DNA of 64,000 bases from a virus: the IMG/VR virus record IMGVR_UViG_3300021185_003853, positions 32,001 through 96,000 of that record; one strand, given 5' to 3'. Below are positions 1 through 63,127 of the stretch, in pieces. The first letter of the stretch is position 1. Each line of letters begins with the position of its first letter. The notes beneath the pieces are model-generated. The model worked only from the letters and a program-made list of their open reading frames with translations. It was not told the DNA's origin and did not search any database. A program made the translations under genes and the position numbers.

Positions 1-150
1 GCAGGTTCAACTCATACTGCTACGATAGAACTTGACGGCACATATGGCACTGACCTGACACTCAAACAATTCAATTCAACAGCAACTTACTCACTCACGC
101 AAAATTGTGTCACTGTTGGTGGTTGCTCTATCTCGGTGACTCAACAATGA
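1..150 (+). CDS. 3' end of a curlin-like (Gln/Thr-rich beta-repeat) protein, partial
   Basis: Frame 1 is open from base 1: AGSTHTATIELDGTYGTDLTLKQFNSTATYSLTQNCVTVGGCSISVTQQ*. It has curlin-type strands ending in Q. Its stop overlaps the cyclase start (ATGA 147-150). Confidence 0.55.
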   Translation, partial: AGSTHTATIELDGTYGTDLTLKQFNSTATYSLTQNCVTVGGCSISVTQQ

Positions 151-2174
151 CAAAGTGGTGGTCAGTTCTTCCAATTATTTTCATATTTTGTGCATTAAAA
201 GTCACAGAATCCTACTTTGTAAAATCGATAGAATATACATACTACGACCAGTTGCAACGTGGCCATCAAACTACTAAAGTGAATGACATTGTACTGGTAA
301 ACATAGATGAAAATGCAATTAAAAAGGAAGGACAATACCCTTGGCCAAGACAGACAGTCGCCAAATACATAAACAATGCACCGATCAACTCACTGCTAGT
401 CTCCACTATGATCTGGTCAGAGCCAGATCGCTTTGCAGGGGACAAGGAACTATCAAGATCCCTAAGTCAAAAAGCATTGGTATTAGCAAGCGCCCCTACT
501 CGCCAAACTACTACAACTGAGTTAGGGATATATGCCAATGTTTCGACATTCGGCAAACCGACAAGTACGCTGATTAACTACAGTGGGTTATTGACACCCA
601 TACAAGATCTCGCACAATATGCAATGGGAGTCGGCGCTGTGTCTGCTGAAGTCGATCAACCTTCAGGCGTTCTACGTAGAGTCCCATTAATCGTTAGCAT
701 TAATGGACAACCTTATCCTTCATTAGGACTTGATACTGTTCGTGTATTTTTAGGTGAACCATCATATACTATTAAGAACAATGAACTCGGAGTGGAGTGG
801 ATTCGTTTAGGTAAACAAGATCCTATTACAACCCAACCGACATCTGAACTGCCTGTTGCATTCTGGCATGACTTCGAACAGATATCTATTCTTGATCCAA
901 TGCCTGAGGGTAAGGTATTGATCTTCGGGGTGACTGCAGAAGGATATTCGAATCCTGTTCCGACACCAACAGGTCCTATGTATCCTCATGAGATTCAAGC
1001 ACAACAAATCTACACGCTGATGTCTGGTGTCGAGATACTACGACCCGACTATACAAGATTCCTCGAACTATTGATGATCCTTATTGCTTGTACGGGCATA
1101 CTAATCGCAGTTTATCGCTTGGGTACGATTGGTGCGTGTATCACAAGCATTGCATTGTTGGGTGCATCACCAGCGATAGGATATTATGCATGGACAAATA
1201 GTTACTTCTTCCTTGATATTATCTGGCCAACAGTTGCCGGGGTGGTCGTATTCGCACAAAGTTCATTCAACAAATACTACACGACTTACAAACTCAAAGA
1301 ACAAATCAAGAAACAATTTGGGACATACTTATCTCCTGCTATGGTGCAAAAATTACAAGATGATCCGTCATTGTTAAGGTTGGGTGGTGAGACAAGAAAT
1401 ATGACATTCCTGTTCTGTGACATTCGTGGATTCACTCCAATATCAGAACAATACAAAACAAACCCACAAGGATTGACGGAACTCGTCAATCGATTCCTGA
1501 CACCGATGACAGACATTATTATGGACAACGAAGGAACCATTGATAAGTACATGGGTGACTGCATTATGGCGTTTTGGAATGCCCCCTTAGACGTGCAGTA
1601 TCAGGAGTATATGGCGGTTAAAACGAGTGTAGAGATGTATCAGCACCTTGACATACTCAACGCAGAACTCGAAAGCGAAGGGTTATTGCCCATTAATATC
1701 GGTGTTGGTATCAATACAGGTGAAGTTGTTGTGGGTAATATGGGGTCAAATCAACGCTTTGATTACTCTGTATTGGGTGATGCTGTAAACCTAGCGGCAC
1801 GATTAGAAGGACAAACAAAGTCATATGGTGTCAAAACACTTATAGGTGAGGACACTAAAACACAGCTCAACGAACAATACTTTACTCTTGAGTTAGATAA
1901 TCTTGCTGTTAAGGGTAAGACAGAACCTGTTAAGATATACACTGTATTGACTGAAGCAATAGATGTTGAGATAGAAATGCATGAAGAGATGATGAGAGCA
2001 TATTACGCAAAACAATTCGATCAAGCGATAGCATTCTGTGAGGATCTAAAGAGATGCTTCAAAGGTGAAATTGCTGATTATTACAGAATGTGGCAAGACA
2101 GATGTAGGTCGCTAGAAAACACTCTAGACAAGGGTGAAGCGTGGGACGGCGTGTATCGAGCAACATCTAAATAA
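147..2174 (+). CDS. CHASE2-domain transmembrane class III adenylate cyclase
   Basis: CHASE2 motifs (DIVLVNIDE, GQYPWPR, GVLRRVPL), three TM helices, and a cyclase core (FCDIRGFT, IDKYMGDCIMAFW, GINTG, FDYSVLGDAVNLAARLE). The Lys/Asp pair indicates ATP specificity. Start moved to ATG 147 because of the ATGA overlap. Confidence 0.93.
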   Translation: MTKWWSVLPIIFIFCALKVTESYFVKSIEYTYYDQLQRGHQTTKVNDIVLVNIDENAIKKEGQYPWPRQTVAKYINNAPINSLLVSTMIWSEPDRFAGDKELSRSLSQKALVLASAPTRQTTTTELGIYANVSTFGKPTSTLINYSGLLTPIQDLAQYAMGVGAVSAEVDQPSGVLRRVPLIVSINGQPYPSLGLDTVRVFLGEPSYTIKNNELGVEWIRLGKQDPITTQPTSELPVAFWHDFEQISILDPMPEGKVLIFGVTAEGYSNPVPTPTGPMYPHEIQAQQIYTLMSGVEILRPDYTRFLELLMILIACTGILIAVYRLGTIGACITSIALLGASPAIGYYAWTNSYFFLDIIWPTVAGVVVFAQSSFNKYYTTYKLKEQIKKQFGTYLSPAMVQKLQDDPSLLRLGGETRNMTFLFCDIRGFTPISEQYKTNPQGLTELVNRFLTPMTDIIMDNEGTIDKYMGDCIMAFWNAPLDVQYQEYMAVKTSVEMYQHLDILNAELESEGLLPINIGVGINTGEVVVGNMGSNQRFDYSVLGDAVNLAARLEGQTKSYGVKTLIGEDTKTQLNEQYFTLELDNLAVKGKTEPVKIYTVLTEAIDVEIEMHEEMMRAYYAKQFDQAIAFCEDLKRCFKGEIADYYRMWQDRCRSLENTLDKGEAWDGVYRATSK

Positions 2175-2311: not shown

Positions 2312-2902
2312 ATGAAATCTAAGTTGAAAGCTGCGCAGTTGATTATCGGTATTCTAGCGTTATTATTTATCTCTATTATTGTATTGATGTATCCTGTTAA
2401 ACACAATCAAGAGTTTTATGCTATTGAACAGGTTACAGTGCCTGAACAAAGCAAGCATCTTACACTTGATAATATTGAATGTATGGCACTAAACATCTAC
2501 CATGAATCACGAAATCAAACTCTAGGCGGACGACTTGCCGTAGGTTATGTTACTTTAAATCGTGTTAAGAGTAATAAGTATCCTGACACTATTTGCGGTG
2601 TCGTGAAACAAGCAAAAATAAACAAATGGTTCCTCGAAAGACACAACAAAAAAGTTCCCTCTAGAAACAAGTGTCAATTTTCTTGGTATTGCGATGGTAA
2701 GTCAGATCAACCATTAGAATCAAACGCATGGGAGGAAGCATATCTACTTGCTATCCATGTTATAAATATGTACGATACTATATCAGATCCCACAAAAGGT
2801 TCGATCATGTATCACAGCAATAAAGTGAAACCTTACTGGACAGATGCTTATAAACATCTTGTCACAATTGATGACCACATTTTTTATGGGAGTGTGAAAT
2901 GA
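2312..2902 (+). CDS. SleB-like cell wall hydrolase (Hydrolase_2) with N-terminal membrane anchor
   Basis: CMALNIYHESR (catalytic Glu), VTLNRV, YPDTICGVVKQ, CQFSWYCDG, DPTKGSIMYH, IDDHIFY. Confidence 0.9.
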   Translation: MKSKLKAAQLIIGILALLFISIIVLMYPVKHNQEFYAIEQVTVPEQSKHLTLDNIECMALNIYHESRNQTLGGRLAVGYVTLNRVKSNKYPDTICGVVKQAKINKWFLERHNKKVPSRNKCQFSWYCDGKSDQPLESNAWEEAYLLAIHVINMYDTISDPTKGSIMYHSNKVKPYWTDAYKHLVTIDDHIFYGSVK

Positions 2903-3450
2903 GTTTAAAAGAGTTAACTTGGGAAAATCACAAGTCGGCAGAACGCAAAAAGTTTGCTAGTATTCTAATGAGTGGTGATATAGATCCCTTGTTATATTAC
3001 AGATTTTTATGTAATCAATACTACATGTATATCATGTTAGAAGAAAATTTAAGAATGGCAGGATTCCCACCTAAGTTATGGGACATATTCAGAGCGCCAA
3101 AAATCCTTGAGGATATGGTCGAACTACAAGACGAATATGGATTCATATTTAAACCAAAAGCAGTATATCCACTCACACACAAATACTCGGCACACGTTGA
3201 GACATTGTTCCGTGAAAGACGATACGATGATTTGATTGCTCATATGTATGTTCGTCACTTTGGTGATATGTACGGCGGTGCGATGATTGCTAAGAAGGTT
3301 CCGGGTTCAGGTAAGATGTATGAGTTCGAGAACAAAGAAGAATTAAAAGTGCATCTACGTGAAATGCTTAACGATGATATGGGACCTGAAGCAAATGTAT
3401 GTTTCGAGTACGCAATTGCATTGTTTGAGGAGTTAGGCAAGGAATCATGA
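2899..3450 (+). CDS. hemO: Heme oxygenase (biliverdin-producing), phage HemO
   Basis: SLKELTWENHKSAE (proximal His) and AHMYVRHFGDMYGGAMI (distal helix). Coupled to a bilin reductase gene. Confidence 0.92.
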   Translation: MSLKELTWENHKSAERKKFASILMSGDIDPLLYYRFLCNQYYMYIMLEENLRMAGFPPKLWDIFRAPKILEDMVELQDEYGFIFKPKAVYPLTHKYSAHVETLFRERRYDDLIAHMYVRHFGDMYGGAMIAKKVPGSGKMYEFENKEELKVHLREMLNDDMGPEANVCFEYAIALFEELGKES

Positions 3451-4133
3451 GTTATGTTTGGGATTCGTTAGTCGATCTGCAGAATCATTTTATTGAGACA
3501 TTTGACTCAGTAGCAAAAGAATACAAAGAGTCAGGCATGGAACGATACAACCATGAAGGTTGGATTAATCGTGTATGGAGCAATGATGACTTTAGACGAG
3601 CGCATGTTGATGTTGTCGATGCCCGTGAGGAGAAAGGATTGTGGATGATGCATGTATGCGTATTCCCGCATCTAAGTTCAAACGCTCCTATCTATGGGTT
3701 TGATGTGATTGCTGGACATAAGTTGATGACTGGTGCATTTCATGACTATAGTCCTACAACACAAAAAGATCACCCAATGATTGATTATTTCAATGAACAG
3801 GTTGAACCCTTACAATGGAAACGTGAACGTGATTTGCCGCCTTGGGCGAAAGCAATCTTTAGTGACAAGATGATGGCGGCAAGTGCTGTTAAAGAGCATT
3901 CAGAGATCGATCAAGTTGTATCGACAGCAAAGAATACACTTGATTACTTTGTAAATAATGTGGGACAGTATAATCAAACTTCGAGGCGTAACCCGGTTGT
4001 GTTTGCTCAAAACAACTATGCGCATCACCAAAAACAAAATCCTCACACTCCCCGAGTGATGAAGACCCTAGGATTAAATTCAGACGATGTTGATTCGTTT
4101 ATTAAGAAGTGTTTGTTTCCAGAAGTGAAGTGA
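3447..4133 (+). CDS. pcyX: Ferredoxin-dependent bilin reductase, PcyX type (biliverdin to phycoerythrobilin)
   Basis: FRRAHVD, GLWMMHVCVFP, PIYGFDVI, AFHDYSP, LPPWAKAIFS, QKQNPHT. D55, H69, D86, N198 and H200 sit at the positions I recall for the characterised phage PcyX. Confidence 0.88.
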   Translation: MSYVWDSLVDLQNHFIETFDSVAKEYKESGMERYNHEGWINRVWSNDDFRRAHVDVVDAREEKGLWMMHVCVFPHLSSNAPIYGFDVIAGHKLMTGAFHDYSPTTQKDHPMIDYFNEQVEPLQWKRERDLPPWAKAIFSDKMMAASAVKEHSEIDQVVSTAKNTLDYFVNNVGQYNQTSRRNPVVFAQNNYAHHQKQNPHTPRVMKTLGLNSDDVDSFIKKCLFPEVK

Positions 4134-12415: not shown

Positions 12416-12859
12416 TTAGATCTTTACGATACCTGCTTCCATTAGAATGCCTCTGTTTCTTAGATGTTCAAATACAATATCATCCTTGCTTTGACCATGA
12501 TAAGGAACAGCGTGATGTTCTTCAATCATAATTTTTGTGACTGGCCGCCATGCATCTGTCTTTGCATCATAGACATCAAAGTCACCAAGGATACGACCGA
12601 ACTTACCTTTCATGTCCTCCCCTTTCTTACTAATTTGTGTACGTAACACAGGGTTAGGACCTAATAATTCTTTGAGACGTTGCTTTGCTGCCAATCCAAA
12701 TACTTTTTCTACTTTGTCTCGTGTACGTGATTCAGGAGTATCGATGCCCATGATTCTTACACGTTCTTTTTTCATCCAAACACCAAAACCTAGATCAATA
12801 TCTACATCTACAGTATCACCGTCAACAATTTTTACTACTTTACATTTATAATCATACAT
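12416..12859 (-). CDS. Staphylococcal nuclease (SNase)-family endonuclease
   Basis: VVKIVDGDTVD, RVRIMGIDTPE, GKFGRILG. Confidence 0.88.
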   Translation of the reverse strand: MYDYKCKVVKIVDGDTVDVDIDLGFGVWMKKERVRIMGIDTPESRTRDKVEKVFGLAAKQRLKELLGPNPVLRTQISKKGEDMKGKFGRILGDFDVYDAKTDAWRPVTKIMIEEHHAVPYHGQSKDDIVFEHLRNRGILMEAGIVKI

Positions 12860-12860
12860 A

Positions 12861-13310
12861 TTATTTTATTCCTAGATGGTCTTCGTGCATTATTTGAAAG
12901 CGATACCCTCTATCAATACAATATTCTTCTGCTGCTTTCCACTTTGCGCTATTGATACCCCAATCCTTTACTTCACGGATGTAACGCTTTGTGGGTTTGC
13001 TTCCTTTCTTTTTAATGACAGGCGGCCCGCATTGATACTTTGGTTTCACTTCTATTAAAATTTTTTCTTTCTTGTTATCTTTATTTATCATTTCTACATA
13101 GAAATCAGGAAAATATCTGTGCATCTTTCCATCAATAGGTGAACGATACGGAATAACAATTTCTTCACTATTCCATAGCAATACGCCAGGATGTTTATCA
13201 AGGTAGGACATTAATTTTAATTCCCATCCACTACGATAAATAATATTTGTCGAATCACCTCTATACTTCTCTGGGTGTCGAGGTTTAAATTTTCCTTGCA
13301 TCAAAGGCAT
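12861..13310 (-). CDS. 4: Head completion nuclease gp4 (TnsA-like)
   Basis: KYRGD..IIYRSGWE, WNSEEIVIPY, HRYFPDF, LIEVKP, AKWKAA. Confidence 0.93.
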   Translation of the reverse strand: MPLMQGKFKPRHPEKYRGDSTNIIYRSGWELKLMSYLDKHPGVLLWNSEEIVIPYRSPIDGKMHRYFPDFYVEMINKDNKKEKILIEVKPKYQCGPPVIKKKGSKPTKRYIREVKDWGINSAKWKAAEEYCIDRGYRFQIMHEDHLGIK

Positions 13311-30100: not shown

Positions 30101-32423
30101 AACATCGACAACGCAAACAAATAGTGTTCAGTCAGAGTTTAATCAACAAGGAAACTTTTCTGTAGCGAGTATAACAGATTCATTCTTGACTGAAACTTTG
30201 ACTAGCGACACATTTAATACGACACAAAATTTAGGTTCATTCGTAACAGATTTTTCAATGACACCCTTCATGAATTCTAAAGTCATTAAAATCGGGGTTT
30301 CAGGATTACGACCAAACACAAGACATTATTTCTACTTTGATGAGAAACCTGTTTCTGCTCATGTTGCTCCTGGCGGCATTATAGAAAATGGCATTTCACG
30401 AAGCATTAAAGCTTCTGACATCTCTGCAATAGGGTCCAGAGGTGCTGCTGTTAAGTCAGATCAATACGGAAGATTATTTGCAGTATTCCAATTGCCCGGA
30501 CAAACATTCTTAGTAGGTGAAGCAGATCTGGTTATCTCAGATGCTGATCAATTCAATAGTATTGAATCAGCAGGAACATCTTCTGCTAAAGAAACTTATC
30601 GTGCGTATGGATTTACTGTGAACAGAACTGCAATAGGATCAGATGTCAGATCCGTTGACTTCGATATTGAATCAGACACATTCAGCACATCAAGAGAACT
30701 TAGAGTTTGGAATCCTCCACCAAGAAGAAGAGGCGGAGATCCATTAGCGCAAACTTTCGCAATTCAACCTGCGCAAGCAGAATATGCATCGTACATCTTT
30801 ACCGATAAACTTGATTTGTGGTTTAAGAAGAAATCACCTGCTTCACGAAGAAACGGAGTCACTGTCCAATTGCGTGAAGTTGAAAACGGGTATCCTACTG
30901 CTAAAATAGTGACATTTGGTATGAAACATGTTGACTGGAGTGAAATATCAATATCTGATGATGCATCATCAGCAACTACTGTTGTTTTTGATAATCCAGT
31001 CAAACTTGAAGTCGGGAAAGAATATGCAATTGTTGTTGTTCCTGATGCAACTGATCCTGATTATTTCATATGGACGGCAAAGGTCGGAGAGAATAGCATC
31101 AATGACGATAGTGTTCAGGTTTCATCTGACTGGGGTTCAGGTGTATTGTTTACATCAACAAACAACCAAGCATGGGAATCATATCAAAACGAAGACGTCA
31201 AATTTAAGTTGTACAAGATTCCGTTTTCCACAAATCCAGGACACATTGATCTTGTTGCTAATGACATGGAATTCATTGACATTAATCCTGATACACGCAA
31301 CGGCAACTTTATTGTTGATGAGTATGCTTATGTGTCATTATCAGGCAATACATTCTCAGGAAACTTAACATCTGAAAGAAAGATTAATGTTCCTAGTAGT
31401 TTAAGCGACTTTTCTATTGTTCAGGGTGACTTGGTCATTGTTGAAAAACAAGGAAGCACGCATGTGTCAACTGTTAAATCTTTGACAACTGTAGCATCAA
31501 ATCGTGTTATTGTTCTTTCAGATTTGCCGCCATTTACTGCAGGGCCATTGACAATATCGCTAGGTGTCGGAGGTAAAGTAACATACTTCAACCAAAACAA
31601 AGGCAATGCAGTGCATATCAAAGAAAGTACATCAAGAACTTCTGCGCAATATACAGCGTCAGCAACTGTTACAGGTGCAACGTCTGGGGCAACAGGAGAA
31701 ATCGTTTCTTTATCAAGCGCAAATGTGTCTTATATTCAACCTTTCGTTATGCAACAAAATACATTGCGAACTTCTAGTGAATTGACACTATTTAAAAATA
31801 CAGCAGCATTTGATACTGCAAACTTGTCGCCTGGCCAAGGTGTTCCTTTACACTCAAACCTTTTCTTGACAGGTGAACAAAGATCAATTCCGTCAAAACA
31901 ATTACTGCTCGCTGACACTGCAGGTAATCAAATTGATAGGTTTAGATTGAGACTAGATTTATCTAATAATGAATACAAATACGTAACACCTGTTATTGAT
32001 AATGCACTTGCACAACTTCAGGCATACAATTATACGATGTCGAATACTATAGGTAACACATCTAAATATGTTTCTAAGAAAGTTGTGTTGCAAGCGGGAT
32101 ACCCGGGACAGGGGTTGAAGGTTATTCTGTCCGCATTCCGACCAACAGGTACGAGCGTAGATGTTCAAGCACGATTCTTATATCCGTCTGATCCTGAAAA
32201 TTATTCCGATTGGGTTTCATTGACGAATAACAATCCTGATTTATATTCATCATCTGCAAACATAAAAGATTTTCGTGAATTTGATTATTCGTTTACTGAA
32301 GCAGCGACTCCTTTAGAATATGATGCATTTCAAATCAAGATTATTATGAAACACGATGATGCAAACGCAAGCACAGGTCTGTTCCCACTTGTTCATGATT
32401 ACAGAGCGATAGCGTTGACATAA
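27138..32423 (+). CDS. Large virion structural protein, VrlC/DUF4815-like
   Basis: NLNTAPYNDDFD..YIRVLFKP.RAVQAREMTQLQSILQNQI, APGADRLK, YTMKDI, RFKNGILVD, DPLAQTF. Confidence 0.82.
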   Translation: MGINTNLNTAPYNDDFDADKQYIRVLFKPARAVQAREMTQLQSILQNQIERFGNNIYQEGTIIEGVNPTVDKNVNFVKINDQSGIDDLTIYASTDDVSYFIEGLSSGLTARIVAGANGFQSDAPDLKTFFVKYLQSVANQAGTDVKQFISGELLSVTREEDGVTTAVATVTANDGTDHVGESLAVQVTDGVIYQHGHFNYVAPQLIIASKYDIIPADISVGFNINESIVDSALDNTLLDNAQGFNNFNAPGADRLKLEPKLAVYDTATRPESFFALLRIEKGQTVFVRGDTQFNSIKKELAKRTQDESGSYVVSGLPITTEKDSDGKFQAVIGAGRAYAFGFEINNIGKTRLEIEPSATTSTKSLQSTGVEYGGYLTVDVSSAGTDVESFNFSDRYKLCNSAQQDIGTCSIRNIEPVGNDKLRIYVYAVQKNENEQTTDIAFIYKNATTKTAVLSGNIVDANKGLAIFDTGRQGMKSVSSVVYTERQRKYYPIPVSSSSPILIPVEVNGQVTTSPITQGGAFAIDISGEYVGATIVESVASPNTGISITFPAGKTLQYIYYNANISGVTQDTLTAIDVWVTTSHSAINNFASLGLPNAVVLNQVKDSEGKDVTSKFALQRNQNDAYYGLSYLTLKSGETLGAATATISANFTVLQRTVNGGYITPNSYSNITDVSEKLTSYTGRNGKTYNLLNSFDFRPYADTTVQYLTEEAGAASVNISSLQLDTLGSAIPVSSNSTILATQEYYLGRIDKLAIDKTQQFVIVKGQPADNPGKVVNDSVFGIADIFVPGVNMSVSKANPIRVERNTIKNYTMKDIESIEKRVDRVFDVLSLSLLESQTKDMFIPDASGNNRFKNGILVDQFKDLRVADITDGDFKASIESVQKYLAPAVTQFPIDLKVDSATSSNVVSYDDVTTLSSSSRETLLSQEYATSFRNCASNFYNYNGTVLMEPKFDAGYDVIENPAVTIDIDLAGAVLSAVDTIQQFVPLTSTTQTNSVQSEFNQQGNFSVASITDSFLTETLTSDTFNTTQNLGSFVTDFSMTPFMNSKVIKIGVSGLRPNTRHYFYFDEKPVSAHVAPGGIIENGISRSIKASDISAIGSRGAAVKSDQYGRLFAVFQLPGQTFLVGEADLVISDADQFNSIESAGTSSAKETYRAYGFTVNRTAIGSDVRSVDFDIESDTFSTSRELRVWNPPPRRRGGDPLAQTFAIQPAQAEYASYIFTDKLDLWFKKKSPASRRNGVTVQLREVENGYPTAKIVTFGMKHVDWSEISISDDASSATTVVFDNPVKLEVGKEYAIVVVPDATDPDYFIWTAKVGENSINDDSVQVSSDWGSGVLFTSTNNQAWESYQNEDVKFKLYKIPFSTNPGHIDLVANDMEFIDINPDTRNGNFIVDEYAYVSLSGNTFSGNLTSERKINVPSSLSDFSIVQGDLVIVEKQGSTHVSTVKSLTTVASNRVIVLSDLPPFTAGPLTISLGVGGKVTYFNQNKGNAVHIKESTSRTSAQYTASATVTGATSGATGEIVSLSSANVSYIQPFVMQQNTLRTSSELTLFKNTAAFDTANLSPGQGVPLHSNLFLTGEQRSIPSKQLLLADTAGNQIDRFRLRLDLSNNEYKYVTPVIDNALAQLQAYNYTMSNTIGNTSKYVSKKVVLQAGYPGQGLKVILSAFRPTGTSVDVQARFLYPSDPENYSDWVSLTNNNPDLYSSSANIKDFREFDYSFTEAATPLEYDAFQIKIIMKHDDANASTGLFPLVHDYRAIALT

Positions 32424-40630: not shown

Positions 40631-43600
40631 ATGTCTAGTTTAACGAATATTAATAATAACACAAGGGTAGTCAATGTAGGTAGAACAACCCCAGTTGCTC
40701 CAGGTCAACAACCTGCATCAAAATCAATTCCTGTTGTTCTGGCTACTGATCAAACCGCTATTCCTGTTGTTGAGCAGAATAAAGTTCAATCAGAAGTTTC
40801 ATTATCTTTGTTGGGTATTCCTCGATCAGAAGTTGCCTTAGGTATTTTTGCAGACGTTAATACTTACGATGTAAACCCATCAGAATGGTCATCGAGTCCT
40901 CAATACTACATTTCGGGTGATATTGGCGGTCATGGTATTAAACATTTGCCGACTGAAGCGGGTGCGCTTGTTGAAGCACCTCGTGATGAAAGTGCTGTAC
41001 TGACTTCAAAGCGTTTCTTCAGATATCAACCAGGTCGTGTATCTGCGGCAACATTCGGCATCAAGTCATCTATTTCAACTGCTGATTACGCAAGAAATCC
41101 TGCTATTCGCAAATATGGCATCTTTGATAACTTTGACGGATATTATTGGGAAACAAAACAGTCAGGTAAAGGTGATAACTTTAATGTTGTGCGTAGAACA
41201 CAATCTTTAATGCACTTTCCACCTTCGCCGTTTGGTTTAACTAATGAGGTTTTACGTAAACCCAACCCTGCTGCAGACGATGAACCTATACCGTACAATC
41301 AAACAGATGATTATCGCATCATCGGTAAGGAAGGAAAAGAATTAAAAACAGATGTACTTGAGCGTGATAGACAAGTATTAAGTGATAATATCCTTAGTAT
41401 CGCTAAAAACGCATTCAATAATCTATTAACTGCATCTGGTGGCACCAACGACTTCGCTGATTTTTATAATAACACTAATGGTAATGGTAATAATAGTGCC
41501 AACGAAGGCCTTGCCACTCCTTATGACAGATACGAATTTAAACAAAAGTGTCATCGTGACGTTCAATTTGCTCTTAAGATGATGTTGATGGATCTTGAAT
41601 GGGGCGGTGATGCACATACAAGAATCAATACAAAAAATTATCAAACAGGACTTTTCAACTCGTATTTTCCAAATACCGCCACCGGCACTCCTGTACCTCC
41701 GGGGCAATTTGAACTTGATTTGCATACTAATGCAAGAGCGATTGCTGTCGGTTTGCCGGGATTGACTTCACCGGGTGTAAGTAAGATCGGAGCATTATAC
41801 GACTTTTTAGTTAAAGTTTCTGGAACAAACAATAAAGGATTCTTTAACAGAATAGTTGCTGGCGTATCGGCAACCAATGCGTATCCGCCAATCACAGGCA
41901 CCAATGCTTCATTAACAACGCTAAGCTATGGGTCAAAGAGTAAAGTTGATACGCTCATTGATACAAGAAAGCATTATTGGTCGTATTTTGTATCGTCATT
42001 TGTATTTGTGAATAATGATCCCGATAACACTGCCACTAAACAAACATACAAATTTAATGCATTTGCAAATTATCTTCCTGAAGGTTACAATGCTTCGTTG
42101 ATAGGTAAAGAATTAAGTGGGTCAAATTATCCTTATGCATTGAACGAGTCAATAGACGGTGTTCCGCTTGCTGACGCTGCTGACGTTCTTGCTGTAAATG
42201 AATTTTACAGAAACATAAAATATAAATGTGCTCGAGATCTCGAATACATTGTCAACGGGTATAAGGATGATATTGTTGGCGGCGGTAATGCTCAGACCCT
42301 TTACAACGCATCAATGTATTATAAAGCTGCGGGGTTATCAATCTTTACACAGGAAGACAGTGATATTCCTCGTGAAGTTGCGAAACATAATCATCTAAAA
42401 CAATGGATACAATCAGATTTTGAGGATTCAGATATTACAGGATTTGATTTACCTGTCACATCACCAGAAATTGTTAAGTTAAACTCTTTGTATGGCATCA
42501 TAGATTCCAACTTCGTTAGAGAAACAAAAGAAGGTGTTGAGTTAGGTAGTCGTGGATTCGCAGGTAACCTGATTGCATTTAGAGACGGATTGTTGATGAC
42601 ACATGCAGCCGTCAATGACCCTAGCATGCTGAAAGACGCTAAACAAATAAGAACAACTGTTAAAGAACAATTTGATGATAGTCAACCTACATGCTTTAAG
42701 TTGGCAACAGGTAACGTGACTTTCGGGCAAAATGTTAAGGTTCTAACAACAGGAAATGAAACGCAAATTAGTGACGGAAACAACTTCACTTCAGATACAA
42801 CAGGCAATGTTGTCGAAACTGTTGTTGCTGAATACGGAGGCATTTATAAGGTCAGTCGTGTTTACGGTCCTACAGGCAGTGAATTTACTCTACAGGATCA
42901 AGACGGAAATGATATCTATGCTATGAGAGGTTCTGCTGATAGTGGCACTCTTATCACAGATACAATTGTTATTGAAACTGTTGTTGCGTTTATTGGCGAT
43001 GTTGTATACAATCCTGCTGAATATAGATTGGCAACTGGCATCCGTGCAGAAAGAACGATTCAATCGTATGACGGCACCGATGATACTATTCAATACACAG
43101 AAAATACAGACCCATTCCCGAAAGGTATGCAATGGCCGTATCGATATTCATCATCTGCGCAATTAGGTGATGCGACTGCTAAGTTTATTGGGCACATCGA
43201 TACCTCTTTGAGTCCTAATGATGCTACTGAAATAGGTACAATTCGTCAACAATATGATGAAATTAATTTTACACCTGAATATATTAACTGGATTAAGAAT
43301 AATGTTAAACCAGAATATTGGGGTGTTTACGAATATCGTGTGCCACGGTCAAGATTCAGTCATGACAAATTAGACGGCAAAACGTCTAAGAGAGTTTACA
43401 GCGATTTAGCAACAGGTAATACTGGTATTGTTCGTCCGGGCATGGAAGTGCTAGACGAAGACGGCATCTGGACAGATGCTGTATCAGAATATGATTTTGA
43501 CTTCACTAAAGTAACGATGCTTAAAATTGAGTTCTCGTGGTATGGTGCGGTAGGTGCATTGTTCCTTGCTTATGTTCCAATCGGTAACGGCGAAGCACGA

Positions 43601-44905
43601 TGGGTAAGAGTACATCACCTAAGAGCATCGAATCAGTTGAAGATCGCATCTCTTGGTAACGCAACACTACCAATCACATACAATGTATATGGCGGAGGAT
43701 CGCCAGCAGCATTTGGTGACGGAGAGGTTGCAACGCATACTTACGGAAGTTCACAGAGCCACCATATTGTAAAATACGGTGCTTCATACTACATCGATGG
43801 TGGTGACCGTGGCACTGTTCGTCTGTACAGCCATAATAATAATAGCCCCGTTGCTGCATATGGCAAGAAATGGGAAATGGGACAAGCAATCACCAGCGGC
43901 GTTCTTAATTTGAATGGGCAAACTCAAACATCGGGTGGCGAAGCATTGCCAATGCTAGCTGGCGGCAATAATGATTTGTCGTTACAATACTTTATGGGTG
44001 CAGAGTTAAAGACTAACAGTGCTCTTGATGCAGGCATTAAAGTTGTTTGGGTCGATACTGCTACTGATAGATTGTATTTCTCAAGAAATCCTATAGGAAC
44101 TGGTGTTACATTGATTCCTGATCGTGGTGAACTTGTTTACGGATTAGAGACAAAAGATTTCATTCTAAGCACTGTTGAAGGAAACCCTGTACGTAACAGA
44201 GTACAAGTGTACCCAACAAAGTTATCAAGTGCAAATCTTAACTCTGGTCCTGTTCGATTAACTATGAAAAGAACTCCGATATTCCAGACCCTTACAACTA
44301 TTGATTCAAGTTCAGCGCTCGCAATAGGATCAGATCCTTATATTGTAAGTGCTTCTAATGACCCATTGAACGTAGCAGAAACGAATACATATTTACAAAA
44401 CGGCGAATCAATTTACGGATGGTTCCAGGGAGTTATCGGCGCAATTGACGAAGAAACAATTTTCGGCAGATTGTATAAGAAAACAAATAGTTATTATTTT
44501 GAAGTTTTGCAATCATTTGGTGATACAATCACGCTCAATGCTGATGGCAAATTTCTTCCTGATGTGAGGTATGTGAGAAACCCCTCAGGTGAAATTACCG
44601 GCCTTGTTGCCGACACAGTAACAAAAACAGAAGTTCCTTTGCAGGATACATTGACATCAATTAAAGTGTTTGATAATCCTGTTACACCCATTCCGGGTAC
44701 AGGTGCCAATGTCGCTACGCTATACTTAGCACAAAATGGAACAGAGCAGTTAGATCTCGATACGTATTTTGATTATAATAAAGAATATCTATCCTACCCA
44801 CTAACAGATGAAGCGGAAACATTGTATTTTGTTGTTGATAAAGATACAGCAGCAGATGCTACCCCGAATGAAATAGCAATAGGATTGACATGGGAAGAAC
44901 AATAG
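40631..44905 (+). CDS. Large virion protein (FRYQPG/WYGA family) with two inserted phycobiliprotein-like KCxRD repeats
   Basis: Paralogue of the next gene; KCHRD at Cys307 and KCARD at Cys533. Confidence 0.72.
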   Translation: MSSLTNINNNTRVVNVGRTTPVAPGQQPASKSIPVVLATDQTAIPVVEQNKVQSEVSLSLLGIPRSEVALGIFADVNTYDVNPSEWSSSPQYYISGDIGGHGIKHLPTEAGALVEAPRDESAVLTSKRFFRYQPGRVSAATFGIKSSISTADYARNPAIRKYGIFDNFDGYYWETKQSGKGDNFNVVRRTQSLMHFPPSPFGLTNEVLRKPNPAADDEPIPYNQTDDYRIIGKEGKELKTDVLERDRQVLSDNILSIAKNAFNNLLTASGGTNDFADFYNNTNGNGNNSANEGLATPYDRYEFKQKCHRDVQFALKMMLMDLEWGGDAHTRINTKNYQTGLFNSYFPNTATGTPVPPGQFELDLHTNARAIAVGLPGLTSPGVSKIGALYDFLVKVSGTNNKGFFNRIVAGVSATNAYPPITGTNASLTTLSYGSKSKVDTLIDTRKHYWSYFVSSFVFVNNDPDNTATKQTYKFNAFANYLPEGYNASLIGKELSGSNYPYALNESIDGVPLADAADVLAVNEFYRNIKYKCARDLEYIVNGYKDDIVGGGNAQTLYNASMYYKAAGLSIFTQEDSDIPREVAKHNHLKQWIQSDFEDSDITGFDLPVTSPEIVKLNSLYGIIDSNFVRETKEGVELGSRGFAGNLIAFRDGLLMTHAAVNDPSMLKDAKQIRTTVKEQFDDSQPTCFKLATGNVTFGQNVKVLTTGNETQISDGNNFTSDTTGNVVETVVAEYGGIYKVSRVYGPTGSEFTLQDQDGNDIYAMRGSADSGTLITDTIVIETVVAFIGDVVYNPAEYRLATGIRAERTIQSYDGTDDTIQYTENTDPFPKGMQWPYRYSSSAQLGDATAKFIGHIDTSLSPNDATEIGTIRQQYDEINFTPEYINWIKNNVKPEYWGVYEYRVPRSRFSHDKLDGKTSKRVYSDLATGNTGIVRPGMEVLDEDGIWTDAVSEYDFDFTKVTMLKIEFSWYGAVGALFLAYVPIGNGEARWVRVHHLRASNQLKIASLGNATLPITYNVYGGGSPAAFGDGEVATHTYGSSQSHHIVKYGASYYIDGGDRGTVRLYSHNNNSPVAAYGKKWEMGQAITSGVLNLNGQTQTSGGEALPMLAGGNNDLSLQYFMGAELKTNSALDAGIKVVWVDTATDRLYFSRNPIGTGVTLIPDRGELVYGLETKDFILSTVEGNPVRNRVQVYPTKLSSANLNSGPVRLTMKRTPIFQTLTTIDSSSALAIGSDPYIVSASNDPLNVAETNTYLQNGESIYGWFQGVIGAIDEETIFGRLYKKTNSYYFEVLQSFGDTITLNADGKFLPDVRYVRNPSGEITGLVADTVTKTEVPLQDTLTSIKVFDNPVTPIPGTGANVATLYLAQNGTEQLDLDTYFDYNKEYLSYPLTDEAETLYFVVDKDTAADATPNEIAIGLTWEEQ

Positions 44906-59188: not shown

Positions 59189-62100
59189 ATGTCAACTATT
59201 AAATTAAAAAATAGCATTGTTCCAGGCGAACGGCCAGTTGTTGCTCCTTTAGACGATGAAACTAATGAGCTGATTCTCGGAGAAATTGCAATCAATACGC
59301 ATGACGGTAAAATGTTCATGCGTAAAGATCAAGACGGCACTATCTCTTTGCAAGAGGTAGGGCAGCGTGATATTGCTGAAAATGTTTTCTATGTTTCTAA
59401 AATAGGTGACGATTCGAATGATGGTAAAACTATCGGCACAGCATTTGCATCAATTGAACAAGCGTTATTGAGAGCAACACCTATAACAGTCACATTTGAT
59501 GTTCGTTCAGGTGCAACAATTGATATTGATGTTGCAACTAACACTATTCATTTGCCCGGTCATGTTTTTGACGATGGTGATGAAGTCATATATAGAGAAA
59601 ATCTAGGATCTTATTCTTCATTAACAAATGGACAACAATACTTCATAAGAAAGTATCCTAATCCATCAAACCTGGAAATTCTTCGAGAAAAGGTTCAACT
59701 GTATACAACTAGAAATGGCGCAATATCAGGACTATCTGCAGATTTAGTTACACTTGCAGTTTCAGGTTTAGGTAATGCGCATTCCTTAACACGAGACACA
59801 AAGCAAACCACAATCTTTGTTAAAAGTGGGACGTACACTTTAAATAATGTTGTTCGTGGCACTGCACCAATGGGTGGCATTGTTGTTCCTAAAAATGTTT
59901 CAATTGTAGGTGATAACTTAAGAACAACAAGAGTCAAAGGGTTACATGCAGGAAACGATCTTTTTTATGTTCAAAATGCGTCTTATATAACAAACCTAAC
60001 ATTTGAAGGTATGCAAAGAGATGCCTCGCAACCTCGAGATCCTGCTGCTGTTTCATTCCCACCTATTGCGTTACAAGAAGGCGGTGTTGCTAATCCGATT
60101 TCAACAAGTCCTTATATAGAAAATTGTACAGCGTTTAATACGACTGCAACAGGCATGTTGATTGACGGAAGTTTGACTACAGGATTAAGATCAATGGTAT
60201 CTGATTCGTTTACGCAAATCAATGCTGGCGGTACAGGTGTTCACATCGTTAATCGTGGGTATGCTCAACTTGTCTCCATCTTTACTGTTTCATGTGATCA
60301 CGCTGTATTATGTGAATCAGGCGGACAATGCTCATTAACAAACTCAAACGCATCGTTTGGTAATTTTGGATTAAAGGCAACTGGTGCATCTGAGTCATTG
60401 TATAGAGGTGTTATTAACGCTAACGCAGTTCCGTTTGCCGACTATCTTGAAATAACAACACCAACACCTCCTAAATACGGAGATGCATTCTTGGTCAATG
60501 ATGTTGATCGACAACTGATTTCAAAATGCTCTCGTGACACAGGATTAATTGTAGATGCGGTTGCTCAAGATTTAGTATTGCAAACCAATTTCAAATCTAT
60601 CTACGCAGGTATCGCATATCAACGTAAAAATGCATTAGCAGATGCACAAATGGTTGAAGATACAGCAAACGCATTGCTTGAAACAAAACGCCTTGTAGGA
60701 TTGTTAGAAAATGTCATTCCTGTAAAAACAACAAGTGATATAAGTTTTGATGTCATAACAGACATTATTAAGTTTGGTACGGTTATCGATAATGCGGGTC
60801 TAGGTACTGCGACAGAACCAGAATCAACATTAGTAAACGGAGCATCCTCAGTCGGAACTGTTCCTGCATTGACATTTGTTGATGTGCTGAATCGAGGTTC
60901 TGGTTTTGAAGATGCAAAAGACAGATTAAAAACCAACAGATCATTTTTGCAAGAAGAAATAACAGCATACATTGCTGTTAATCATCCAAGTTTGACGTAC
61001 AACACAAATAAATGCAAAAGAGATGTTGGGTATATAATCGATGCACTACAATATGATTTGATGTATGGCGGAAATTCTGCAACAACTACCGCTGCTGAAA
61101 GTTATTTTGTGGGTGCAACATCGCAACTTGGCGCAGGGCAAAAAACAGCAACTGTAGATGCTTATGGTCGATTAGCAGATGTCTGTCAGCAAGTAATTTT
61201 AGGGACAACTGTTACTAAGTCAACAGGCAATAATGATGTTCAAGATATTTCAGGTTCTTCGGGTAGTGCATCAGCAGGCACAGCTGCACACGATTTAGTT
61301 GAAATTATCAAAGGTGTTATTGATGACGGAGACCTTGAAGCGTTACCTACAACGGTTCTTCCTGCATTTCCTACCACAGGAACTAACGCAGACGCAAAAA
61401 TAGAAATAGATGGCAACAGACGTGCATTGAGAAATGCGACAACTGATTGGGTTATAATCAATACAGGATCAACTGATGATGGTAGCGGAAACGGTGATGG
61501 TAATGTATACTACACTGTTGAAGGAATACAATCATCTCTTGACTTCACAGGAACTGATTTCAATGGTAACAATTTACCCGTATTTAATTCAAGTGGCGTA
61601 CAAACAGGAACTGACACAATTCAAATAGCGAGTCATGGGTGGAAGCAAGGTCAACCTGTCAAATTCACAAAAGGGTTGACCGCCGGTCCTGGAGGATTGG
61701 TTGACGGTACAGTATATTTCATTAAGTATGTGACTGATGACAGTTTCAAACTTGCTACCGACTCAAATGATATAGATAATAGTATTCAGGTTCTATCGAC
61801 ACAAGGTACAGGTAATCACACACTGACGCCTAAGTTCTTTTATAACACAACAAAATGTCAAAGAGACGTAGGACTAATCCTTGATGCTGTTAAAGATGAT
61901 GTATTGTTAGGCACAAACTTTAACGCTGTGTATACCGGTATTGCATATCAACGTGCGAGCGCATATACTACAGTTACAAACTCAAATCAAAAGAATCCTA
62001 CAATCGCTTCAATGTTGGATACAAAACGTCTTGTTGGTCAATTGTCTGATATTTCATCGGATCCAGATGTCCTCGCAAGAGCGAATCATGCGTTTGATGA

Positions 62101-63127
62101 AATTATACACATCTTCGAAGACGGAACTGTAAGTGTTTCAGAACCCGGAGACGGTGTTGCAGATGCATTATTCTTACCTAACACGTTAAATGCAAGTGCT
62201 GCTATTGTCACATCAAAAGACGAATTGATTGCAAATAGATTAGCGTTACAGGATTTTGTGATAAATGAAGTTACAACAAACCATTCTGGTATCTTAACTA
62301 GTCCTAATTACAATGAAACAAAGTGTAGGAGAGATGTTGGGTACATAGTTGATGCATTGTGTTATGATTTACTATACAACACAAATTCAGCGACATTGCG
62401 AGTCGCAGAAAGTTATTATATTATTAATGATGCAGGACAAACAGTTGCACAGTTAGGAAATGACCCAGCAACTGTCGATGCAACTGAAGCAGTATACACT
62501 GCATTAAAAAATGAACTTGCAAACGTGATAACTGATTCAGGAGCAACAGCAACTGCTCAGGCGCTGATGGATCAAATTATTGGGTACATAGATTCTTCTG
62601 CATTTGAATTAGATGAACTAACTGAATTATCGACAACAGGTGTTGTTGTTAAATTCATCGCAGGTCAGACGGCGATAACAGATAACAGATCACAAATTCA
62701 AGCAACATCAGGACAAGGAATCGATGTATATCGTGTTACGCCACTTGAAGATGTGCGTGATGCATTTGTTTCAGGCCATGGCGTAAACTTCAGAAAACGA
62801 AGTTTGATCGCCGCTAGTTCGATGACATTCGAGTATGTCGGAACAGGCATTGAGATACAAGGTCTAACAGACGCAGGTGCAAATACGGATGATTTATATA
62901 ACAGACCTCGAACAAATGACTTCCCGAAAACGGAAAATGAAGTTATATTTGACGAGGACACAAACTTAGGTGCTGTTTATTTCACATCCACAGATCATAA
63001 AGGTGATTTTAGAATCGGATCTGAAATGCGCATAAATAGAACTGCGGGTAGAATCGAAGGAAATACTTTCGACAGATCATTATTCTCAGTTATGACACCA
63101 TACATATTAGCAATCGAAGGCAATTAA
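59189..63127 (+). CDS. Virion protein with beta-helix region and four phycobiliprotein-like KCxRD repeats
   Basis: LGEIAINTHDGK, YVSKIGDDSNDG, SIVGDNLR, SPYIENCT, FTQIN.GG.G, FTSTDHKGDFRIG. KCxRD cysteines at residues 447, 609, 890 and 1046. Confidence 0.78.
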   Translation: MSTIKLKNSIVPGERPVVAPLDDETNELILGEIAINTHDGKMFMRKDQDGTISLQEVGQRDIAENVFYVSKIGDDSNDGKTIGTAFASIEQALLRATPITVTFDVRSGATIDIDVATNTIHLPGHVFDDGDEVIYRENLGSYSSLTNGQQYFIRKYPNPSNLEILREKVQLYTTRNGAISGLSADLVTLAVSGLGNAHSLTRDTKQTTIFVKSGTYTLNNVVRGTAPMGGIVVPKNVSIVGDNLRTTRVKGLHAGNDLFYVQNASYITNLTFEGMQRDASQPRDPAAVSFPPIALQEGGVANPISTSPYIENCTAFNTTATGMLIDGSLTTGLRSMVSDSFTQINAGGTGVHIVNRGYAQLVSIFTVSCDHAVLCESGGQCSLTNSNASFGNFGLKATGASESLYRGVINANAVPFADYLEITTPTPPKYGDAFLVNDVDRQLISKCSRDTGLIVDAVAQDLVLQTNFKSIYAGIAYQRKNALADAQMVEDTANALLETKRLVGLLENVIPVKTTSDISFDVITDIIKFGTVIDNAGLGTATEPESTLVNGASSVGTVPALTFVDVLNRGSGFEDAKDRLKTNRSFLQEEITAYIAVNHPSLTYNTNKCKRDVGYIIDALQYDLMYGGNSATTTAAESYFVGATSQLGAGQKTATVDAYGRLADVCQQVILGTTVTKSTGNNDVQDISGSSGSASAGTAAHDLVEIIKGVIDDGDLEALPTTVLPAFPTTGTNADAKIEIDGNRRALRNATTDWVIINTGSTDDGSGNGDGNVYYTVEGIQSSLDFTGTDFNGNNLPVFNSSGVQTGTDTIQIASHGWKQGQPVKFTKGLTAGPGGLVDGTVYFIKYVTDDSFKLATDSNDIDNSIQVLSTQGTGNHTLTPKFFYNTTKCQRDVGLILDAVKDDVLLGTNFNAVYTGIAYQRASAYTTVTNSNQKNPTIASMLDTKRLVGQLSDISSDPDVLARANHAFDEIIHIFEDGTVSVSEPGDGVADALFLPNTLNASAAIVTSKDELIANRLALQDFVINEVTTNHSGILTSPNYNETKCRRDVGYIVDALCYDLLYNTNSATLRVAESYYIINDAGQTVAQLGNDPATVDATEAVYTALKNELANVITDSGATATAQALMDQIIGYIDSSAFELDELTELSTTGVVVKFIAGQTAITDNRSQIQATSGQGIDVYRVTPLEDVRDAFVSGHGVNFRKRSLIAASSMTFEYVGTGIEIQGLTDAGANTDDLYNRPRTNDFPKTENEVIFDEDTNLGAVYFTSTDHKGDFRIGSEMRINRTAGRIEGNTFDRSLFSVMTPYILAIEGN

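Follow-up and report, generated by a model that had tools for sequence, protein, structure and literature searches.

The 64,000-nucleotide (nt) stretch of DNA analyzed here, referred to as the window, corresponds to positions 32,001 to 96,000 of the IMG/VR virus record IMGVR_UViG_3300021185_003853, which is 114 kb long in full and 67% complete. It comes from an uncultured, T4-like marine phage, with genes for gp32, gp59, baseplate, and tail-tube proteins. The gene under study encodes P0001, a protein of 1312 amino acids (aa) with repeats built around the motif Cys-x-Arg-Asp (CxRD), and the same window contains the bilin-synthesis genes hemO and pcyX. The relationship of these repeats to the phycobiliproteins, and the possibility that they carry bilins on a viral fiber, were explored by sequence and structure comparison.

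P0001 matches the PHROG tail-fiber families 17885, 5342, 4527, and 9851 (E 1e-62 to 1e-26), mainly over residues ~257 to 426, and tblastn aligns it with tail-fiber, baseplate, and structural proteins of Synechococcus and Prochlorococcus myoviruses (P-SSM2, P-SSM5, and S-SRM01). Residues ~257 to 426 and the C terminus are common to cyanophage tail-fiber proteins, and the repeats lie between them. The gene is flanked by large structural open reading frames (ORFs), downstream of the baseplate genes. Judged by its sequence, P0001 would be a tail-fiber or baseplate-distal protein of the T4-like phage, presumably present in the virion. It has no Pfam family at E<=1, a single-sequence search of PDB sequences gave no relative, and megablast of the gene against phage records gave no match.

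The original prediction had described four helical repeats centered on CxRD. All four motifs lie exactly at the Cys codons it gave, and the peptide it quoted is residues 575 to 628, but the copies belong to two full and two truncated units. They are arranged as two tandem A+B modules, residues 425 to 720 and 868 to 1150, that are 40% identical (BLASTP E 1e-41). Each module consists of a truncated A unit, which starts at the Cys helix and lacks the helix upstream of it, followed by a full B unit of ~150 aa. The candidate site residues of the first B unit (B1) are Cys609, R611, D612, Y639, and T655. A six-frame scan of the window found the extended CxRD motif in open frames at six sites only, four in P0001 and two in the ORF at 40631-44905 (Cys codons 41549 and 42227). 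The units of this second ORF are more divergent and retain an Asp at position +14 and a Tyr at position +30. A second internal repeat suspected in P0001 (residues ~100 to 205 versus 780 to 870) had no BLASTP support.

Table 1. Coordinates of the fiber repeats and bilin-synthesis genes in the window and the evidence on which each assignment is based
Feature	Position (nt)	Strand	Basis
Heme oxygenase gene hemO	2899..3450	+	PF01126 E 2e-14; PDB heme oxygenases E 3e-9
PcyX-type ferredoxin-dependent bilin reductase (phycoerythrobilin synthase) gene, 4-nt overlap with hemO	3447..4133	+	PF05996 E 4e-18
Two further divergent KCxRD units (KCHRD and KCARD) in a 1424-aa structural ORF	41423..41899 and 42101..42577	+	Motif scan; profile E 6e-11 and 3e-5
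P0001, putative tail-fiber-like virion protein, 1312 aa	59189..63127	+	ORF list and translation, PHROG, tblastn
A1, truncated unit, residues 425-566, Cys447 (codon 60527)	60461..60886	+	Repeat HMM positions 42-111 on residues 445-513; four helices
B1, full unit, predicted phycobiliprotein-type globin, residues 567-725, Cys609 (codon 61013)	60887..61363	+	AF2, Foldseek, VIA, hhalign
A2, truncated unit, residues 868-999, Cys890 (codon 61856)	61790..62185	+	Repeat HMM at residues 880-952; 40% identical module duplication
B2, full unit, residues 1000-1147, Cys1046 (codon 62324)	62186..62629	+	Repeat HMM positions 2-138, E 1e-26; own-genome profile match E 8.5e-32

Predicted fold and conserved site of the repeat unit

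The fold of the unit was modeled with AlphaFold2 (AF2), without templates, from an alignment of 142 diverse units taken from the window and 80 IMG/VR loci. The model of B1 has a pLDDT of 97.5 and a pTM of 0.92, with six helices and the Cys on the third. When it was compared with the PDB by Foldseek, the top ~50 matches were all phycobiliproteins (TM 0.60 to 0.67, probability 1.0, E only ~1e-2). An independent structural search with VIA-align against 48,161 representative chains gave as the best match the far-red allophycocyanin 8or7_A (Z 14.4, rmsd 2.0 Å, 121 residues), followed by the phycoerythrin 5aqd_M (Z 13.9, 140 residues) and the bilin domain of ApcE, 4xxi_A (Z 13.3). Globin-coupled sensors and photocobilin scored lower (Z ~11; photocobilin 8j2w, 10.9), and ordinary hemoglobins lower still (Z 6 to 7). 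These matches indicate that the repeat unit is a phycobiliprotein-type globin core, a fold assignment that is well supported by the models. The AlphaFold and Foldseek comparison that the original prediction had proposed leads to the phycobiliproteins, and the best match of the confident B1 model, an allophycocyanin, speaks for a globin fold rather than a non-globin one.

The N-terminal X-Y helix pair of phycobiliproteins is absent from the unit: the structural alignment covers chain residues 31 to 159, and the alignment by hhalign begins at template column 46. With these helices, the alpha-beta pairing surface is missing as well. In the model of a whole A+B module (pLDDT 84.5), the A unit forms a four-helix bundle (helices 14-40, 44-56, 62-82, and 86-105) tied to B by a disordered linker. 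In this model only B matches phycobiliproteins, whereas A matches generic four-helix bundles, so that the tie of A to the globin core comes from its sequence similarity to B.

At the sequence level, the complete set of PDB sequences yielded 19 matches (E<=10) to a profile of the 142 units, and 15 of these, the best at E 0.045, are phycocyanin alpha chains. In the alignment, profile positions 7 to 61 fall on residues 38 to 103 of the alpha chain and the unit Cys falls on Cys84, which bears out the likeness to phycocyanin noted in the original prediction. The unit was also aligned by hhalign with 51 cyanobacterial alpha and beta chains obtained from cpcA/cpcB loci in 80 cyanobacterial genomes. 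The alignment covers 93 columns (Prob 83%, P 8.8e-6), and 20 column-shuffled controls gave P values of 0.03 to 0.85. With alpha chains alone the Prob is 86%, and with beta chains alone it is 13%. Among 75 relatives of P0001, 17 have a precomputed match to PF00502, the phycobiliprotein family. All six relatives that were rescanned exceed its gathering score (27.9 to 38.6 versus 22.2 bits), and do so on the repeat units themselves. The units are very probably homologous to the superfamily that comprises the phycobiliproteins and their paralogues BBAG-1 and BBAG-3, bilin biosynthesis-associated globins (BBAGs) from nonphotosynthetic bacteria.

The conservation of the site was followed in a larger set of copies. 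A search with one A+B module over 1.84 billion cluster representatives (E<=1e-3) matched 1016 proteins, many of them giants of 2000 to 6400 aa with up to 32 matched stretches each, and a local HMM took ~1700 unit copies from the best 150 of these proteins, where the median spacing of the copies is 153 aa. Cys609 is conserved in 94% of the copies, Arg611 in 94%, Asp612 in 98%, Asp623 in 99%, Tyr639 in 97%, Thr655 in 87%, and Tyr604 in 83%. The CxRD triad is thus kept at 94 to 98% in copies that are otherwise ~25 to 35% identical; the Cys on which the original prediction hinged is conserved in the family, together with the Arg, Asp, Tyr, and Thr. All four units of P0001 carry the triad, aligned to Cys84/Arg86/Asp87 by both HMMER and hhalign, and hhalign puts the Cys, Arg, Asp, Tyr, and Thr of the unit on phycocyanin alpha positions 84, 86, 87, 110, and 129. 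In a structure of C-phycocyanin, the bilin of the alpha chain hydrogen-bonds Asp87 and Tyr129 (PMC12692400), and CXRD is the recognized chromophore motif of phycobiliproteins, BBAG-1, and BBAG-3 (PMC10151467).

These residues are also lost together. In a set of 1498 nonredundant copies, 74 have no Cys. Arg611 is kept in 97% of copies with the Cys and in 43% of those without it, Asp612 in 100% (1424/1424) versus 64%, Tyr639 in 99.6% versus 66%, and Thr655 in 91% versus 38% (p 1e-27 to 1e-39, for copies that are not fully independent phylogenetically). In the Cys-less copies, where Phe, Tyr, Ser, Thr, Trp, or Ala mostly takes the place of the Cys, there is no change in Asp623, Tyr604, Asn629, and Gly627, and this speaks against both misalignment and general decay. 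The loss of the Cys, Arg, Asp, Tyr, and Thr as a block, while fold residues stay, indicates a single cooperative site distinct from the latter.

The comparison with known phycobiliproteins (PF00502: CpcA/B, ApcA/B, CpeA/B, and the bilin domain of ApcE) can be summarized as a shared core in a different architecture. Model residues 1 to 146 superpose on chain residues 31 to 159 at an rmsd of 2.0 to 2.4 Å, Cys84-x-Arg86-Asp87 lies on the equivalent helix, and the unit has hydroxyl residues at the positions of Tyr110 and Tyr129. The preceding helix and Pro and the following Y..GG, which had been said to line up, do so in the full units; the A units start too late to contain the helix. Phycobiliproteins are free subunits of ~165 aa whose X-Y helices serve the alpha-beta heterodimer and (alpha-beta)3 assembly, whereas the phage units are tandem domains of a 1312-aa fiber, with up to ~30 copies in relatives, and Asp623 and Asn629 are additional invariants of the phage family. 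Globin-coupled sensor and photocobilin/photoglobin domains share a related helical globin fold (Z 10 to 11), but they rank lower, bind heme or B12 with biliverdin, lack CXRD, and have His ligands that are not conserved in the phage units.

By description, a parallel is provided by BBAG-1 and BBAG-3, phycobiliprotein paralogues outside photosynthesis that attach bilins without lyases, have CXRD, and occur with a heme oxygenase (HO) and a ferredoxin-dependent bilin reductase (FDBR) of the PcyA/PcyX branch (Rockwell et al. 2023, PMC10151467). Lyase-free attachment is the mode that the window phage would need. In the same comparison by description, BBAGs are single-domain soluble proteins encoded beside the FDBR, whereas the phage units are part of a structural protein encoded far from hemO-pcyX.

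Distribution of the unit and of bilin-synthesis genes

Among 50,697 records of cultured phages, the unit was found in 250, of which 249 are cyanophages and the other is a marine virus. The carriers include S-PM2, S-WAM2, S-CAM1, S-RSM4, P-HM1, P-HM2, and P-SSM2. The fiber, baseplate, and structural proteins of these T4-like phages (gp7-like in P-HM1 and P-HM2) have both the repeat unit and the flanking fiber regions in common with P0001, and in the BFVD the B-unit fold is present in tail proteins of many cultured cyanophages. The IMG/VR fragments with the closest unit relatives (loci L002 to L081) derive in many cases from genomes estimated at ~350 to 370 kb by CheckV completeness (for example, 65,910 bases = 18%). 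Some repeat proteins (P0187, P0188, P0191, P0195, P0200, and BFVD matches) also carry chitin-binding (PF02839/ChiC_BD), collagen triple-helix, or ConA-like lectin modules, which fits modular host-binding fibers.

The window also encodes the hemO-pcyX cassette that had been reported for it: both enzymes have their Pfam domains, and the FDBR is a true PcyX, with PDB entry 5OWG matched at E 2e-71 versus 1e-11 for PcyA. The cassette adjoins gp59 and gp32, here and likewise in several independent contigs. The cultured cyanophages with the unit have bilin-rich cyanobacterial hosts and psbA, whereas the window phage has no psbA in the 114-kb record, a baseplate hub closest to those of Sinorhizobium phages, and its own PcyX for phycoerythrobilin. 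Its gp32 resembles those of cyanophages and of phiN3 to the same degree, and the closest cultured carrier of PcyX is the Pelagibacter phage Mosig. The host of the window phage is probably not a cyanobacterium. The window adds a psbA-less, PcyX-encoding phage context for the repeat units. Just upstream of hemO-pcyX and of a cell wall hydrolase gene (2312-2902), the window encodes a 689-aa protein with a CHASE2 sensor and a class III adenylate/guanylate cyclase domain (105-2174, plus strand; PF05226 E 3e-30, PF00211 E 2e-19).

The co-occurrence of the unit with bilin-synthesis genes was followed in two samples. Of the PcyX-bearing IMG/VR fragments, 12 of 42 contain the unit, including 10 of the 12 that are at least 50 kb long, and none has psbA. 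In the gp32 lineage, where only fragments reaching far enough in the direction of the fiber gene were counted, the unit is present in three of four fragments with the FDBR (G000, G004, and G007; not G099) versus none of four without it (G093, G094, G096, and G097). This association is suggestive, in a sample too small for significance. An attempt to enlarge the lineage-matched sample by using the baseplate hub as the anchor gave six close loci only.

In Mosig (MT647606.1 35653-44330, L162), an HO gene and a PcyX-like gene follow a ferrochelatase gene and four genes for 2OG-Fe(II) oxygenases and stand directly before genes for neck and tail-sheath-stabilizer proteins, a neighborhood unlike the gp59/gp32 site of the window phage.

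Proposed pigmented fibers and other readings of the site

On the basis of these comparisons and models, the units are probably a phage-specific branch of the bilin-binding globins, that is, of the phycobiliprotein/BBAG superfamily, built into a T4-like fiber. Whether they have kept the chemistry of their relatives is a separate matter, and we consider covalent bilin binding by the units to be only just short of an even proposition. In the mechanism proposed, each unit would take up a bilin in the cytoplasm during assembly and link it to its Cys by a thioether bond, so that the fiber would carry chromophores. In the window phage, HemO and PcyX would supply phycoerythrobilin for this purpose from host heme. 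Given that no lyase is encoded in the record, the units would probably attach the bilin autocatalytically, like BBAG-1 and BBAG-3, and candidate roles for the pigment are light-gated adsorption, stabilization of the domain, and photoprotection. More broadly, we tentatively suggest that the fibers of the window phage, of many cyanophages, and of large uncultured phages could carry covalent bilins, which would make the particle a pigmented, light-responsive machine. A literature search found no paper on phycobiliprotein-like domains in phages.

Several observations count against pigmented fibers. The hemO-pcyX cassette lies 56 kb from the fiber gene and does not cluster with it, and the search for lyases that had been advised at the outset found no CpcS/CpeS or CpeT in the 114-kb, 67%-complete record. 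Mosig, which has HO, PcyX, and ferrochelatase, gave no unit in a profile search of its complete genome, and one FDBR-bearing fragment with 61 kb on the fiber-gene side has no unit. In the 50 fragments with the closest unit relatives (2.6 Mb), the FDBR and HO were found in one only (G058), which rules out tight clustering of the unit with the bilin cassette; a cassette 40 to 56 kb away would lie beyond the ends of most of these fragments. CpeT was found in none of 69 records, including the 50 with repeats, and psbA in none of those 50. The PF00502 search of the whole record at E<=10 gave no match, with P0001 below detection; since its relatives pass, its membership in that family is by transitivity only. 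Taken by themselves, the sequence statistics would be marginal in a search of a whole database. The co-loss of the five residues indicates a single site, not the identity of its ligand. Finally, we know of no report of colored cyanophage preparations.

It follows from the co-occurrence data that the unit and HemO/PcyX are not a universal or obligatory pairing. Their co-occurrence across fragments is frequent, as in the PcyX-bearing fragments and, suggestively, in the gp32 lineage, but not strict, as Mosig shows. In its strict form, in which the repeats are the missing apoprotein for HemO and PcyX, the original prediction is not supported: a phage with the enzymes has no unit, and the unit is common in cyanophages and also in fragments of large uncultured phages that show no FDBR, HO, CpeT, or psbA.

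The same data fit a pigment-free reading. The units may descend from a bilin-binding globin and now serve as rigid helical spacer beads of the fiber, with the Cys, Arg, Asp, Tyr, and Thr forming a polar network for folding or interchain packing. This is a serious alternative, to which we assign real weight although it falls short of being likely. It accounts for the occurrence of the unit in many phages whose sampled DNA shows neither bilin genes nor a lyase or psbA, for a phage such as Mosig with PcyX and HO and no unit, and for the truncated A units, in which one wall of the globin is missing. It also suits a building block present in up to ~30 copies per protein beside collagen-like, lectin-like, and chitin-binding modules, and phycobiliproteins do not share the invariants Asp623 and Asn629. 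What it explains poorly is that the ligand triad of phycobiliproteins is kept so strictly and decays as a block once the Cys is lost. Moreover, an invariant free Cys would be unusual if its role were purely structural, and all cultured carriers infect bilin-rich hosts.

A site for another ligand appears unlikely. Under this alternative, the ligand of the units would come from the host, either as a tetrapyrrole (biliverdin, for example) or as a surface molecule contacted at adsorption, and HemO and PcyX would have an unrelated purpose such as iron release or the manipulation of host signaling. The loose co-occurrence of unit and cassette is compatible with it, as is the binding of biliverdin with B12 by the related globin fold of photocobilin. 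For the cassette, the literature proposes a partnership with phytochromes or BBAGs and a role in the metabolism of heme or iron (PMC11480375). However, the units conserve no His that could ligate heme, in known relatives CXRD is specific to bilins linked by a thioether (PMC10151467), and receptor binding is ill suited to 30 internal copies along a fiber shaft. That the likeness to phycobiliproteins is convergent or artifactual, with a short KCxRDxGY on a generic helical bundle drawing profiles and AlphaFold to a memorized fold, is very improbable: the single-search E values (0.045 for the PDB profile, ~1e-2 for Foldseek) and the beta-chain alignment are weak and helical models often reach Z 13 to 14 by chance arrangement, but the match extends over the whole domain and exceeds that of other globins, the hhalign alignment reaches beyond the motif with clean shuffled controls, all six relatives checked pass the PF00502 cutoff, and the model was template-free and built from diverse units.

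If the pigmented-fiber proposal is correct, a phycobiliprotein fold with an intact chromophore site, repeated along virion fibers, would represent a photoreceptor-type module on a virus particle. To our knowledge, all phycobiliproteins and all of their bacterial paralogues described so far are soluble pigment carriers. Two questions arise here, namely, what purpose the phycoerythrobilin of phage HemO/PcyX serves outside cyanobacterial hosts, and why P-HM1 and P-HM2, both of which carry the unit, adsorb in light only. The literature on PcyX leaves the phage bilin acceptor open (PMC11480375), and the light-dependent adsorption of P-HM1 and P-HM2 has been tentatively ascribed to a light-induced change in host receptors or tail fibers (bioRxiv 10.1101/167650). 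Pigmented fibers would explain both the bilin-synthesis genes in phages of nonphotosynthetic hosts and the light-dependent adsorption of some cyanophages. Should no pigment bind, the units would still be a large unannotated domain family of ~1000 protein clusters derived from bilin-binding globins. The intact attachment residues make pigment on the virus particle testable by simple assays.

Elsewhere in the window, between the tail-tube and baseplate genes, small adjacent ORFs on the minus strand (12416-13310) encode a staphylococcal-nuclease domain (PF00565) and a TnsA-like endonuclease N-terminal domain (PF08722), and may represent the insertion of a homing or mobile endonuclease.

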